Source: Escherichia coli
Lineage (GTDB): Bacteria > Pseudomonadota > Gammaproteobacteria > Enterobacterales > Enterobacteriaceae
Assembly: GCF_041886205.1 (NCBI RefSeq)
Contig: NZ_CP169029.1
Reading direction: 5' to 3' (one strand)
DNA: 64,000 nt
Below the pieces are notes generated by a model. That model had not been told where the DNA came from. It worked only from the letters and a program-made list of their open reading frames with translations, and did no database searches. A program made the position numbers and the translations under genes. This document shows positions 1-46,054 of this stretch, in pieces. Within the stretch, counting starts at the first letter, position 1. Each line of letters begins with the position of its first letter.

Positions 1-388
1 GAAAGCTGCACCGGAAAATGCGGTGGCGAACGCTTACGATATGGTCATCAATGGTTACGAAGTGGGCGGTGGTTCAGTACGTATCCATAATGGTGATATG
101 CAGCAGACGGTGTTTGGTATTCTGGGTATCAACGAAGAGGAACAGCGCGAGAAATTCGGCTTCCTGCTCGACGCCCTGAAATACGGTACTCCGCCGCATG
201 CAGGTCTGGCATTCGGTCTTGACCGTCTGACCATGCTGCTGACCGGCACCGACAATATCCGTGACGTTATCGCCTTCCCGAAAACCACGGCGGCAGCGTG
301 TCTGATGACTGAAGCACCGAGCTTTGCTAACCCGACTGCACTGGCTGAGCTGAGCATTCAGGTTGTGAAGAAGGCTGAGAATAACTGA
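1..388 (+). CDS. aspS: aspartate--tRNA ligase, C-terminal fragment (5' end outside window)
   Basis: ORF runs in from the window edge; C-terminal class II aaRS motifs ([12 protein letters not shown]); synteny upstream of nudB. Confidence 0.9.
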
Positions 389-25845: not shown

Positions 25846-26080
25846 ACATTTAAGCTGATGACCACCGCGCTTTTTATTGACCATTTTGCACGCAAACTGG
25901 AAAACCTGGCGTCGTCATCTATTCTTAAAGGGCAAGGCAACTAAGCCTGCATTAATGCCAACTTTTAGCGCACGGCTCTCTCCCAAGAGCCATTTCCCTG
26001 GACCGAATACAGGAATCGTGTTCGGTCTCTTTTTATCTGTTAAAAGCCAGAAGCATTTCCTTCGCTGACTTTATAGTCAA
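25806..26080 (-). ncRNA. ryeA: antisense sRNA RyeA (SraC), overlapping SdsR
   Basis: Known to be transcribed opposite SdsR at this locus; ends are inferred, not read from sequence. Confidence 0.45.
25932..26034 (+). ncRNA. sdsR: sRNA SdsR (RyeB)
   Basis: GCAAGGCAACTAAGCCTGCATTAATGCCAACTTTTAGCGCACGGCTCTCTCCCAAGAGCC...GGTCTCTTTTT matches the SdsR sequence I recall; sits in the yebY-pphA intergenic region as in K-12. Confidence 0.85.
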
Positions 26081-40920: not shown

Positions 40921-41544
40921 ATTCATCCTGATTATACGCACTGCCATGGTGCAACTGCTTCAAATTAAAACTCTGGTCTGACTTCAAATAATTATCATAT
41001 TATTTATTTGCGTAACGGGATATCAGAAAAAGATATTTTCCTCATTAATTTATTAGGATGTTTACATCGGATTTGTGATTAAGCGTGGTATTATTTATTA
41101 GCGAAACGTTTCTCTCTTGATTTTTTGCTCATTCATCAATTTTTCTTATTTTAAATTTTCAATCCCTTTGGGGATTGACTTCTCTTTAGGGTAATTGATA
41201 GCCGTTAACTGACTGTTTTATGAGAAAAAGTGATATAACTTTTTATTCATTGCATAGCAAAAAATGTGATATTGCACGCACTATGTAATAACTTCTCCCA
41301 CTGGCCTGGAACAACTGAACTTATTGAACTATGTTAGAAACTACGCCAGTTTAAGTATCTGCCTGAACTGGCAAGGTTAAGCACAATGATATATCGGCGC
41401 GTATTCCGTTGCATAAGTGTGCAAAAAAAGTGGAAGACGTATCGAGATTTGTGCGTCTGATCGAGACATGTTTAAAAATGGCTTGCCATAATTAACGTTG
41501 TATGTGATAACAGATTTCGGGTTAAACGAGGTACAGTTCTGTTT

Positions 41545-41688
41545 ATGTGTGGCATTTTCAGTAAAGAAGTCCTGAGTAAACACGTTGACGTTGAATACCG
41601 CTTCTCTGCCGAGCCTTATATTGGTGCCTCATGCAGTAATGTGTCAGTTTTATCTATGTTATGCCTGCGGGCGAAGAAAACAATCTAA
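41545..41688 (+). CDS. yobF: small protein YobF
   Basis: 47 aa ([47 protein letters not shown]), 12 bp upstream of cspC; below the track length cutoff. Confidence 0.8.
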
Positions 41689-41700
41689 GGAATTTTTCAA

Positions 41701-41910
41701 ATGGCAAAGATTAAAGGTCAGGTTAAGTGGTTCAATGAGTCTAAAGGTTTTGGCTTCATTACTCCGGCTGATGGCAGCAAAGACGTGTTCGTACACTTCT
41801 CCGCTATCCAGGGTAATGGCTTCAAAACTCTGGCTGAAGGTCAGAACGTTGAGTTCGAAATTCAGGACGGCCAGAAAGGTCCGGCAGCTGTTAACGTAAC
41901 AGCTATCTGA
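41701..41910 (+). CDS. cspC: cold-shock-domain protein CspC
   Basis: 69 aa; RNP motifs KGFGFI and VFVHF. Confidence 0.96.
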
Positions 41911-41956
41911 TCGAATCCACTGATCTGAAGTGTGAATACGCTTCAATCTCGCTATA

Positions 41957-41982
41957 AAGCCTCGTCGAATGCGAGGCTTTTT
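41957..41982 (+). terminator. intrinsic terminator after cspC
   Basis: AAGCCTCG-loop-CGAGGCTT followed by TTTT. Confidence 0.75.
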
Positions 41983-42075
41983 ACTATGCTTTATCTTCGC
42001 TCCTGGCGTTCGGATATTTGCCCGCCGCGTGATTCGCGTTACACTTGCGGCCTTTAGTATCCTGCCGGAGTTGTC

Positions 42076-42885
42076 ATGTCTTTTTCCTGTCCACTTTGCC
42101 ATCAGCCTCTTTCGCGTGAAAAAAACAGCTATATCTGTCCCCAGCGACATCAGTTTGATATGGCGAAAGAAGGGTATGTCAATCTGCTGCCCGTTCAGCA
42201 TAAACGGTCTCGTGATCCGGGCGACAGCGCGGAAATGATGCAAGCACGCCGCGCATTCTTAGATGCCGGACATTATCAGCCGCTGCGTGATGCAATTGTC
42301 GCCCAACTGAGGGAACGGCTTGATGATAAGGCCACGGCGGTGCTAGATATTGGCTGTGGTGAAGGGTATTACACACACGCATTTGCCGATGCGTTGCCCG
42401 AAATCACCACGTTTGGTCTGGATGTTTCGAAGGTAGCGATAAAAGCGGCGGCGAAACGCTATCCGCAGGTCACTTTTTGTGTCGCTTCCAGCCACCGTTT
42501 GCCGTTTTCCGATACCAGTATGGACGCCATAATACGTATTTACGCGCCGTGTAAAGCAGAAGAATTAGCACGAGTAGTGAAGCCCGGCGGCTGGGTCATT
42601 ACTGCCACGCCGGGACCGCGACATTTGATGGAGCTGAAGGGGCTGATTTACAATGAAGTACATCTTCATGCACCTCATGCAGAACAACTGGAAGGTTTTA
42701 CATTACAGCAGAGTGCGGAGTTGTGTTATCCGATGCGTCTTCGCGGTGATGAAGCCGTCGCATTATTGCAGATGACGCCGTTTGCCTGGCGTGCGAAGCC
42801 AGAAGTCTGGCAAACACTGGCAGCAAAAGAAGTGTTCGACTGCCAGACGGACTTTAATATTCACCTCTGGCAGCGTTCTTATTAA
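42076..42885 (+). CDS. rlmA: 23S rRNA m1G745 methyltransferase
   Basis: 269 aa; N-terminal Cys4 zinc motif (CPLC...CPQRH) and SAM-binding DIGCGEG. Confidence 0.95.
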
Positions 42886-43448
42886 CCGTGGAAGTGCGTC
42901 CAGAGGATCTGGACGCCGATGCCGATCAGTACCAGCCCGCCGAGAATTTCCGCTTTTTTCCCAATAATTGAGCCGATAAAGCGACCAACCATCATCCCTA
43001 ATGTTGACATAATCAAGGTTGCACAACCAATGGCCAATGCGGTCGCGATAATGTTGACCTGCAGGAAAGCAAGACCAACACCCACAGCCATGGCATCCAG
43101 GCTGGTGGCAATCGCGGTGGTTACCAGTAGCCAGAAACCGTGTCGACGGCGCGGCTCTTCATCTTCATCATCTGCGCCACGAAAACCCTCAATAATCATT
43201 CGCCCGCCGAGGAATATCAGCAGCACAAACGCAATCCAGTGGTTCCATTCAAGGACAAACCGGCTGGCTAACATGCCCATTCCCCAGCCGATCAGCGGCG
43301 TCAGGGTTTCGACGGCACCAAAAATAAGGCCGGTTCGCAATGCTTCAGAAAATTTCGGTTTATGGAGGGTGGCACCTTTACCGATTGATGCAGCAAATGC
43401 ATCCATCGACATACCAAACGCAAGAAGAACAGTAGCAGTGATATTCAT
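42882..43448 (-). CDS. mntP: manganese efflux pump MntP
   Basis: Start set at [23 protein letters not shown] (188 aa); 4 bp convergent overlap with rlmA. Confidence 0.9.
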
Positions 43449-43660
43449 GACAATGTCCTGACCGGGGTATCCATAAAACACATCATCGCCCCCAGCAAAC
43501 ATGCATACATGAACAACAAGCCGCGATGGTTTTCGCGTTCATGCAGGCATAGCGATTGATGTGCATATGGTCTCGCCTGACTGAAAGTATTCAGTCCGTA
43601 CGTGCCACGTTTTGCAACGAGTATGTTGACACGTACATTTCCGGAATCTGGAAATCGGCT
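43449..43660 (-). promoter_or_regulatory. mntP 5' leader, expected site of the yybP-ykoY Mn2+ riboswitch
   Basis: Placed from published knowledge of the mntP leader; I did not fold it or match the motif by eye. Confidence 0.45.
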
Positions 43661-43811
43661 ACTCCCCAAATGAGGGCGCAACCTTAACATATTTTGAGAA
43701 TATAAAACAACTGTTGGAATATATTATTTCATTGCTTTATTGATAACGATTTTCATTTGGATTTATATATCAATGAAACGTTAAAATAAATAACAAATAA
43801 GGGAAGAGGTA

Positions 43812-43870
43812 ATATAGCCTAAGCTATGTCTGATTATTAAAAATACACTAAACATAGCTTTGGCTAAATT
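43812..43870. promoter_or_regulatory. putative MntR operator(s) upstream of mntP
   Basis: Two imperfect palindromes, ATATAGCCTAAGCTATGT and AAACATAGCTTTGGCTAAA, of the ACATAGC...GCTATGT type. Confidence 0.35.
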
Positions 43871-43876
43871 CATAAC

Positions 43877-44335
43877 TTATTGAGTTGAAACGAGAAGCTT
43901 ATAAATTTTTTCCAGATCGTCGATATTTCGAACGCGGATTAACAGCCGACGCTGTTCTAATTGCATCACCAACACGCCATCTTCCGACAAGTTCATCGCT
44001 TTGATTCGGCTATATTCAATCCAGACATTGGCGAAGAAAAAACCTTTTTGTTTAAAGATGATCTTCGGAACGCGGATCCAGAATATATAAAAACCCATCA
44101 GAGCCAGTGCGCTTAATAACCATGTCGTTATTAACGCACCATGATTCGTGACGTTGTTATAGATAAGAATGACAATCAATCCGACGAAGATAACGCTATC
44201 GATGCGACCACGCCGGAGCAAAGGAATTGCCAGCAGGGTGGGGCCGTTACGGCGGGGCATGATGAACTGATCGTAGATCGCGAAGGCCAGGAGTGCGGCG
44301 ATGAAAAGAATCAGTATCAGGTCCGTGATTGTCAT
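43877..44335 (-). CDS. yobD: UPF0266 inner membrane protein YobD
   Basis: 152 aa hydrophobic ORF downstream of manZ. Confidence 0.85.
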
Positions 44336-44347
44336 TAATCCTCCAGA

Positions 44348-44374
44348 TAAAAAAACGGGGCCAAAAGGCCCCGG
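44348..44374 (-). terminator. intrinsic terminator after manZ
   Basis: Minus-strand GGGGCC-TTTT-GGCCCC followed by a T-run. Confidence 0.65.
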
Positions 44375-44389
44375 TAGTGTACAACAGTC

Positions 44390-45250
44390 TTACAGTCCCA
44401 GCAGGCCGCAAGCGTAACCAGCGATACCGATGACGAAGAAACCAACGATGATCCACAGCGGGTTAACTTTTTTGCGCAGCAGCCACATACAAGCAAAGGT
44501 CAGCAGCAGTGGTACCAGGCCTGGCATTAACTGGTCCAGAATAGTCTGGACAGTGGTAACGTGTTCTTTGCCCGTCTGGTCAGTAATGCGAGAGACAACC
44601 AGCGGGATGTTGACATGCGTCCACTTGTTAACCAATGCCCCCATGACAAACAGGCCGAGGATAGACGCCCCTTCCGTCAGTTTTTGTAGGAAGCCACCAC
44701 CCATATCTTTAACGATATCGATACCTTTGGAGTAACCATACGCTACGCCGTAGTAACGGGTTGCCAGACGCACCAGGTTAAACAGGATGAAGAACAGCAG
44801 CGGACCTAACAGGCTGCCGCTCATCGCGATACCAGCACCCAGCGCTGCAAATACAGGACGTACGGTTCCCCAGAAGATCGGGTCGCCTACACCAGCCAGC
44901 GGCCCCATCAAACCGACTTTGATACCGTTGATAGCACCGTCATCGATCTCTGCGCCATTAGCACGCTGTTCTTCCAGCGCCAGGGTTACGCCGAGAATCG
45001 GTGCAGCCACGAACGGCTGGGTGTTAAAGAACTCCAGGTGACGGCGAATAGCTTGTTTACGAGCTTCGTTGTTCTCAGGGTAGAGGCGACGAATTGCCGG
45101 TACCATAGAGAAGCAGAAACCCAGTGCCTGCATACGTTCGAAGTTCCATGAACCCTGGAAGAGGTTAGAACGCAGGAATACGCCACGAATATCACTTTGA
45201 GTGAGTTTTTTCTCGGTGGTAGTTTGAGTTGTATCAACCATTTCGCTCAC
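44390..45250 (-). CDS. manZ: mannose PTS EIID component
   Basis: 286 aa ORF matching ManZ. Confidence 0.95.
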   Translation of the reverse strand: MSEMVDTTQTTTEKKLTQSDIRGVFLRSNLFQGSWNFERMQALGFCFSMVPAIRRLYPENNEARKQAIRRHLEFFNTQPFVAAPILGVTLALEEQRANGAEIDDGAINGIKVGLMGPLAGVGDPIFWGTVRPVFAALGAGIAMSGSLLGPLLFFILFNLVRLATRYYGVAYGYSKGIDIVKDMGGGFLQKLTEGASILGLFVMGALVNKWTHVNIPLVVSRITDQTGKEHVTTVQTILDQLMPGLVPLLLTFACMWLLRKKVNPLWIIVGFFVIGIAGYACGLLGL

Positions 45251-45253
45251 CTG

Positions 45254-46054
45254 TTAGTCCAGTTCGTTATCGAGATCGTTGTTACCAGCTGCCTGAGCAG
45301 GCGCACCGGCTACGCGGTTGTATTTCGGGCTAAGTTGGAGGTAGAGCACTGCCATAACAGTACCAATCACACCCAGAGCAACCAGGTTAAAGTTGGTGAA
45401 TGCTGCGGTTACGAAGCCGAGGTAGAAGAACGGCATCAGGTAGCCAGCACGCATCATGTTGATAACCATCGCATAACCAACCACCACGATCATGCCACCG
45501 GCGATATTCAGACCATTGGTCACCACTTCCGGAATCGCATTCAGCATGTTCTGTACTTCGCTGGTACCAACAGACAGCGCAACGATGACGGCCGGAATAG
45601 CCACACGCATTGCTTGCAGGAACAGAGAAGAAACGTGGATCCAGGAAATCGCTGTCAGGTTGCCGTTATCAGCAGCCTTATCCGCAGCGTGCTGGAAAGC
45701 AACGGTAATAGTACGAACGATGATGGTCAGTACCTGGCCCGCAGCGGCCAGAGGGATTGCCAGTGCGATACCTGCACCAATGCTCTGATGACCTGCGATA
45801 ACCAGAATGGTAGAAATGATAGAAGCCAGAGCGGCGTCAGGCGCAACTGCAGCACCGATGTTCATCCAGCCCAGCGCGATCATTTCCAGCGTACCACCGA
45901 TAATAATACCGGTTTTCATATCCCCAAGAACGATACCCACCAGGGTACACGCGATTAGCGGACGGTGAAACTGAAATTCATCGAGGATTGATCCCATACC
46001 TGCGATACAGGCTACGATAAATACCAGCACAATTTGAAGAGTGGTAATCTCCAT
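45254..46054 (-). CDS. manY: mannose PTS EIIC component
   Basis: 266 aa membrane ORF. Confidence 0.95.
   Translation of the reverse strand: MEITTLQIVLVFIVACIAGMGSILDEFQFHRPLIACTLVGIVLGDMKTGIIIGGTLEMIALGWMNIGAAVAPDAALASIISTILVIAGHQSIGAGIALAIPLAAAGQVLTIIVRTITVAFQHAADKAADNGNLTAISWIHVSSLFLQAMRVAIPAVIVALSVGTSEVQNMLNAIPEVVTNGLNIAGGMIVVVGYAMVINMMRAGYLMPFFYLGFVTAAFTNFNLVALGVIGTVMAVLYLQLSPKYNRVAGAPAQAAGNNDLDNELD

Follow-up and report, generated by a model that had tools for sequence, protein, structure and literature searches.

Sequence and conservation evidence for a two-tier manganese-responsive control region of the Escherichia coli exporter gene mntP

Background

The closest described counterpart of the locus analysed here is the mntP (yebN) gene of Escherichia coli K-12, whose promoter and 5' UTR were reportedly described by Waters et al. 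2011 and Dambach et al. 2015. The primary mapping of the mntP MntR sites and of the start site is also said to come from these two studies.

The induction of mntP was shown to depend on mntR (PMC11647493), and Mn-MntR represses both mntH and mntS (PMC11647493, PMC8632737). Fur action at the mntP promoter has been reported (PMC8632737, PMC11647493), as has the repression of this promoter by H-NS (PMC8632737). The response of the mntP leader to Mn2+ was documented by ITC and lacZ fusions (PMC9603457; also PMC12153347, PMC11647493). The leader is a platform for Rho-dependent termination, and activation by MntR and the action of Rho are independent of each other (PMC11647493). Co-transcriptional probing placed a 'riboswitching point' at the transcript of ~205 nt and detected no clear Mn-dependent change at the ribosome binding site (PMC12153347).

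Several related systems offer a basis for comparison. The yybP-ykoY aptamers of L. lactis yoaB and X. oryzae, known from crystal structures, share with mntP the four-way junction, the L1 sequences GGGGAGUAG and GAGAC and the L3 sequence ACAUAC, and switches of this type also share the P1.1 switch helix and the position upstream of a Mn exporter gene; the mntP platform is translational and Rho-linked, unlike an intrinsic terminator. The E. coli alx riboswitch belongs to the same yybP-ykoY family, exerts translational control and responds to Mn, but it lacks P2 (three-way junction), carries UCAUUAC as L3 and responds to alkaline pH, whereas mntP has P2 and an L3 of its own type (PMC12153347). 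The mntH and mntS operators contain the same ATAGC-N4-GCTAT palindrome as mntP, in two copies also at mntS; these sites lie at or beside the core promoter and repress, whereas at mntP the sites activate from positions ~150 and ~190 bp upstream of +1. Bacillus subtilis mneP (Huang et al. 2017, as presented in PMC8632737) has several upstream MntR boxes and is activated only at high Mn; as far as that account goes, it differs from mntP in the operator sequence and in having three boxes, no riboswitch and no H-NS.

Results

Genomic context of mntP

The window, i.e. the whole stretch of 64,000 nt analysed, comes from the E. coli chromosome and contains the gene order rlmA / mntP / yobD / manZ; in the K-12 records the order is manZ, yobD, mntP, rlmA, cspC. 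A segment of 701 bases around the locus was matched in 5418 of 5426 complete E. coli genomes (at least 80 % of the length, 95-100 % identity), the annotated features beneath these matches being mntP and yobD, and the strain background of the window gave a 100 % match to e.g. NZ_AP027978. The gap between mntP and yobD, put at about 430 bp in a previous reading based on the letters alone (hereafter the sequence-only reading), spans 428 bp (43449-43876).

Between 42800 and 44400 the window differs from MG1655 in three bases. One of them lies within the leader, at 43524 (+150; G on the minus strand of the window, A in K-12), inside a variable hairpin, and adjoins a 12-nt insertion found in E. coli. 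The operators, the aptamer, the Shine-Dalgarno sequence (SD) and the start codon are identical in the window and K-12, so the two represent the same locus with no difference of substance. The possibility that yobI is a small annotated gene in the leader was rejected, as no feature is annotated between yobD and mntP in NC_000913.3. Elsewhere in the window, at 25894-26038 and 41525-41985, the Rfam search at the gathering threshold recovered known elements, namely the antisense pair of sRNAs SraC/RyeA and SdsR/RyeB and, ahead of a cspC-type gene, a thermoregulator leader of the cspA type. The features of the mntP region are collected in Table 1.

Table 1. Coordinates of genes, operators, promoter elements and leader RNA elements in the mntP region (window numbering)
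Feature	Position	Strand	Remarks
mntP CDS	42882..43448	-	188 aa, Mn2+ exporter; ATG 43448-43446; Pfam PF02659 Mntp, 187 bits; RefSeq mntP
81-codon ORF, not a gene	43445..43690	-	ATG 43690, 17 nt upstream of +1; spans the leader
Shine-Dalgarno AGGA	43456..43459	-	+215..+218; 7 nt before ATG; GGTCAGGAC conserved across orthologues
CCCCGGU element	43461..43467	-	+207..+213; beside SD; predicted to pair with L1 UUGGGG (Mn-free) or with internal ACUGGGG
Anti-P1.1 strand GUUUUAUGG	43471..43479	-	+195..+203; predicted to compete for the 3' half of P1.1 (MFE and consensus folds)
Expression-platform helix	43480..43562	-	5' strand 43562-43552; 3' strand 43489-43480; 9/9 pairs double-changed, 98 % of cells paired
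yybP-ykoY Mn2+ riboswitch aptamer	43563..43673	-	+1..+111; RF00080; within the mntP leader
P1.1	43673-43666 with 43570-43563	-	switch helix
L1	GGAGUA 43665-43660 and GAGA 43574-43571	-	
P1.2	43659-43657 with 43577-43575	-	
P2	43655-43637	-	
P3.1	43636-43630 with 43604-43598	-	
L3	43629-43620	-	
P3.2	43619-43608	-	
P4	43596-43579	-	
Putative transcription start +1	43673	-	225-nt leader
Putative core promoter	43681..43710	-	-35 TTGTTT 43710-43705; 18-nt spacer; TGn and -10 TAAGGT, 43689-43681
Conserved island TTGTTTTATATTCTCAAAATATGTTAAGGTTGCGCC	43710-43676	-	80-100 % identity, 77 sequences
AT-rich tract	43690..43810	.	19-24 % G+C; from operators to core promoter; presumed H-NS silencing target
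Conserved island CCAAATGAAAATCGTTATCAAT	about 43760-43739	-	holds the 14/19 Fur-box match
Candidate Fur box CCAAATGAAAATCGTTATC	43742..43760	-	-69..-87; 14/19 to consensus; 90-100 % conserved block
Conserved island GTTATTTATTTTAACGTTT	43793-43775	-	between operators and Fur-like box, in the AT-rich tract
Proximal MntR operator AATATAGCCTAAGCTATGTC	43811..43830	.	centre -147.5; 25.7 bits, best in the window
Distal MntR operator AACATAGCTTTGGCTAAATT	43851..43870	.	centre -187.5; 24.7 bits, second in the window
yobD (DUF986) CDS	43877..44335	-	Pfam PF06173; RefSeq annotation

MntR sites far upstream of the start codon

The sequence-only reading had noticed two imperfect palindromes of the ACATAGC...GCTATGT type far upstream of mntP and had taken them as fitting MntR-dependent activation. 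Both are present, 366-422 bp upstream of the mntP ATG, and the proximal core ATAGCCTAAGCTAT (43814-43827) is in fact an exact ATAGC-N4-GCTAT, the distal core ATAGCTTTGGCTAA (43854-43867) carrying one mismatch. A loose version of the palindrome allowing at most one mismatch is not rare (5 matches in the window vs 1.5 expected), and for this reason the other MntR-controlled promoters, mntH and mntS, were fetched to construct a weight matrix. The 20-bp matrix was trained only on three palindromes from these promoters of the same genome, taken in both orientations: AAACATAGCCTTTGCTATGTTT of mntH and GATATAGCACAGGCTATATT and TATATAGCTATTGCTAAAAC of mntS, which we take to be the MntR operators of Patzer and Hantke 2001 and Waters 2011. 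When the ~64,000 positions of the 64 kb were scored, the two mntP sites ranked first and second and the third site reached 10.6 bits; the best score in 200 shuffles, 20.6 bits, stayed below both. The palindromes, which it had been proposed to compare with characterised MntR sites, therefore match the mntH and mntS operators, and this match supports the reading in terms of MntR-dependent activation, itself already published. A full-text literature search for the operator sequence returned primers only.

A scan for MntP in the genomes of 100,044 species gave 80 loci of Enterobacteriaceae (81-99 % protein identity). Sufficient upstream sequence was available for 76 of them, and together with the window they made a set of 77 upstream regions. 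The proximal operator was kept in 77/77, almost always as a perfect palindrome, and its distance of 157-162 bp from the L1 motif was fixed. The distal operator was kept in most regions, 40-45 bp further upstream, with one half-site degenerate in Escherichia and a perfect palindrome in most other genera. The half-sites of the operators were 90-100 % conserved across the 77 sequences and the 4-nt spacers 10-50 %. Per-base conservation in the same set revealed five conserved islands, two of which coincided with the operators. The operator centres are too distant from the start for direct polymerase contact, and their placement is consistent with the published anti-silencing model.

Promoter and upstream tract

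In the numbering of the probing study the conserved L1 adenosine is A11 and the first A of the L3 sequence ACAUACU is A48 (PMC12153347). Position 43673 is the sole start that puts adenines at both places (43663 and 43626, respectively), so +1 was assigned to it; the leader length and the placement of the -35 hexamer and of the -10 hexamer (43686-43681, with TGn preceding) follow from this assignment. A consensus promoter scan did not pick up this core promoter. It gave two promoter-like matches, neither at the documented start, and such matches were no more numerous than in shuffles.

A search with the 19-bp Fur consensus GATAATGATAATCATTATC allowing up to 3 mismatches found no site. The 14/19 match in the conserved island is not distinctive, since six such sites occur in the window and the candidate equals the five others; it was retained as a Fur candidate on account of its conservation, not of the strength of the match. 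The G+C content of 19-24 % across 43700-43850 fits the reported silencing by H-NS.

The aptamer in the mntP leader

A cmscan search of 42000-45500 gave one credible match, to RF00080 (Manganese, yybP-ykoY), at 43675-43579 on the minus strand (41.6 bits, E 4.4e-9). A Mn2+ riboswitch had been expected in the leader, and an Rfam search for the yybP-ykoY model on the minus strand had been suggested; the aptamer was indeed found within the stretch named, at 43673..43563, though with a score under the RF00080 gathering score of 45, and accordingly a search at the curated gathering threshold gave no riboswitch match in the window. Had the absence of a hit at the default threshold been taken literally as a refutation, as the sequence-only reading proposed, the judgement would have misfired. 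The low score probably also explains why neither of the two RefSeq K-12 records checked has a riboswitch feature annotated.

The Rfam alignment covers the 5' two-thirds of the aptamer only and does not reach the 3' strands of P1.2, L1 and P1.1. In ten orthologous leaders RF00080 was the sole family in all ten, with 40-57 bits, four of them exceeding the cut-off. We read the sub-threshold score as a limitation of the model, with its terminator-type 3' part, rather than as non-membership: the translational, Rho-linked platform of mntP, set against the terminator-like 3' part with a U-tract in the Rfam model, probably explains both the low score and the partial alignment.

The metal-site loops are all present: L1 GGGGAGUAG at 43667-43659, GAGAC at 43574-43570 and L3 (A)CAUAC at 43626-43621. 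In a whole-leader alignment of 76 sequences GGGGAGUAG, GAGAC and UGG were invariant, and so was L3 except for one A-to-G change in two sequences. The four-way junction was then written out by homology to the solved aptamers and its pairs were counted in this alignment. In total, 96.8 % of cells were paired, compared with 26-46 % when the partners were slid, and 29 of 50 pairs were double-changed; shuffling gave 14.2 ± 1.8 such pairs, and none of 500 shuffles reached the observed count. Compensatory changes were found in P1.1, P1.2, P2, P3.1, P3.2, P4 (7/7) and the expression-platform helix.

From the aptamer to the Shine-Dalgarno sequence

The expression-platform helix encloses the variable hairpin and a conserved G-run, GCUGGGG (43496-43490). 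In comparison with E. albertii and the cryptic Escherichia clades, E. coli carries in the variable hairpin the 12-nt insertion CGCGAAAACCAT (about 43526-43537), inside which the terminator scan found one weak terminator-like hairpin.

A Mn-free architecture was given both by the MFE structure calculated for the E. coli leader and by the RNAalifold consensus, in which alignment columns 10-15 are paired with 260-266 (L1 with the CCCCGG element). In this predicted fold P1.2, P2, P3 and P4 are retained, AUGG at +200..+203 is base-paired with CCAU, the 3' half of P1.1, and the G-run of L1 (+7..+10) pairs with CCCC at +207..+210, five nt from the SD. The prediction matches the riboswitching point reported for the ~205-nt transcript. 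When SD accessibility with P1.1 enforced was compared with that in the free fold by constrained folding in ViennaRNA, no clear or meaningful difference emerged.

A further conserved helix was observed, formed by ACUGGGG (43496-43490, +178..184) and CCCCGGU (43467-43461, +207..213) and abutting the SD. Two of its pairs are double-changed (A-U to G-C and C-G to U-A) in four sequences of the Cedecea/Buttiauxella group. It could be that this helix competes with L1 for the C-run and so links the state of the aptamer with ribosome access.

Mirror symmetry of the operator pair

Beyond their own palindromy, the two operators were observed to be mirror images of each other. The identity of the distal spacer with the reverse-complemented proximal spacer was 2.21/4, against a null of 1.34 ± 0.13 that in none of 5000 shuffles reached this value (kinship ignored), and the direct spacer identity was 0.83 vs 1.28 for the null (kinship likewise ignored). 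Each operator has one extended half-site, ATAGCC; with kinship again ignored, 31 of 53 distinct spacer pairs had these half-sites head-to-head or tail-to-tail, and only 3 pairs had them head-to-tail. As the relatedness of the genomes is left in these statistics, the mirror pattern is a lead only. The pattern may point to MntR assembling into a larger complex of two-fold symmetry, or to a hairpin or cruciform that has an additional function at the yobD 3' end; the yobD stop codon (43877-43879) is 6 nt away from the distal operator.

Discussion

We are highly confident that the region upstream of mntP constitutes a two-tier Mn-responsive control region of this exporter gene. The sequence elements, the match to the other MntR operators, the membership of the leader in the RNA family, the covariation and the conservation were observed in this work; the action of MntR, Fur and H-NS, the binding of Mn2+, the translational mode and the involvement of Rho are taken from the literature (PMC11647493, PMC12153347, PMC8632737, PMC9603457). 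What we infer on this basis is which hexamers exactly serve as -10 and -35, where the Fur box lies and how the SD is gated.

In the first tier, a weak sigma-70 promoter with its start at 43673 would lie downstream of a very AT-rich tract silenced by H-NS. Rising Mn2+ would bring Mn-MntR dimers onto the two palindromic operators, whose centres lie at -147.5 and -187.5, and MntR, together with Fur at the conserved box near -78, would relieve the silencing and allow more initiation. In the second tier, nucleotides +1 to +111 of the 225-nt leader would act as a four-way-junction yybP-ykoY aptamer, in which Mn2+ bound between L1 and L3 would lock the switch helix P1.1. When Mn2+ is absent, the strand +195..+203 is predicted to invade the 3' half of P1.1, and the freed G-run of L1 may then pair with CCCC at +207..+210 directly beside the SD, so that translation would be poorly initiated and the untranslated leader exposed to Rho-dependent termination.

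Three other readings of the same DNA were weighed against the two-tier model. The 60-bp inverted repeat at 43811-43870 might act in RNA, where it would form a hairpin at the 3' end of the yobD message and serve as a terminator or stabiliser, replacing the operators or adding to them. The RNA of yobD read-through does fold into a long hairpin across the operators (-24.3 kcal/mol, z = -4.8), the arms of the repeat are 89 % complementary, the terminator scan found no other terminator-like site between yobD and the mntP promoter, and the complementarity of spacers and inner flanks between the two sites exceeds that in cross-species shuffles (e.g. 0.74 vs 0.47 and 0.90 vs 0.76). However, each of the sites is itself a palindrome and the mntH and mntS promoters share the motif; moreover, the informative spacer positions are only 46-74 % complementary, far under what a selected helix would show, the outer flanks show no coupling, the stem is not directly followed by a U-run, and MntR-dependent activation of mntP is published (PMC11647493). 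We regard a hairpin role in either form as improbable, and an RNA hairpin as the sole function of the repeat is very unlikely. The Rfam matches to mir-282 and mir-4662 at 43800-43881, far under the gathering cut-offs, were dismissed as artefacts of the inverted repeat.

The remaining two readings concern the leader, where the two-tier model assumes an RNA sensor. Control could instead operate through a translated leader ORF, be it the 81-aa ORF, a 27-aa Cys-rich one (43483-43566) or a short one overlapping mntP, and it speaks for the last of these that a 13-codon ORF of E. coli ends in an ATGA overlapping the mntP start, an overlap present in 33 of 77 orthologues. The 81-aa ORF, however, begins upstream of +1 and its product has no Pfam match. 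Among 18 loci listed, a reading frame that begins upstream of +1 and continues across the leader occurs only in Escherichia and in one Citrobacter amalonaticus, being absent or broken in other Citrobacter, Cedecea, Pluralibacter, Kluyvera and Buttiauxella; on the grounds of start, conservation and Pfam it is not a gene, as the sequence-only reading, which had met it in the ORF list at 43445..43690 (minus), suspected. The 27-aa ORF falls within a segment missing from many genera and deleted in Enterobacter and Kosakonia, the frames and lengths of leader ORFs vary between genera, which rules them out as conserved uORFs, and substitutions in the leader follow the pattern of paired RNA and not that of codons; none of these ORFs is a gene. 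Control by a translated ORF therefore has only a very slight probability. Lower still, and practically negligible, is the chance that the sub-threshold Rfam match is fortuitous or a decayed relic in a leader that is merely a long untranslated Rho target. Such a reading can appeal to the score under the gathering cut-off and to the documented Rho termination in the leader (PMC11647493), but it is contradicted by the covariation, with compensatory changes in all helices, by the invariant metal-binding loops, by the E-value of 4.4e-9 and the ten orthologues of the same family, four of them over the cut-off, and by the published Mn-dependent reporter, ITC and probing data (PMC12153347, PMC9603457).

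Conclusions

The control architecture of mntP is already known in detail, and its confirmation adds no new biology. We consider it doubtful that the operators co-varying as a mirror pair and the covarying helix at the SD side competing with L1 are details that go beyond the published descriptions. Both the mirror-symmetric operators and the SD-side helix bear on the question, raised by the latest probing study, of how the aptamer communicates with the ribosome binding site. For annotation, the lesson is that threshold-based pipelines leave the experimentally validated riboswitch of E. coli mntP unannotated. The locus itself is a textbook case of layered metal homeostasis, with a single exporter gene under the control of a transcription factor, a riboswitch and Rho alike.
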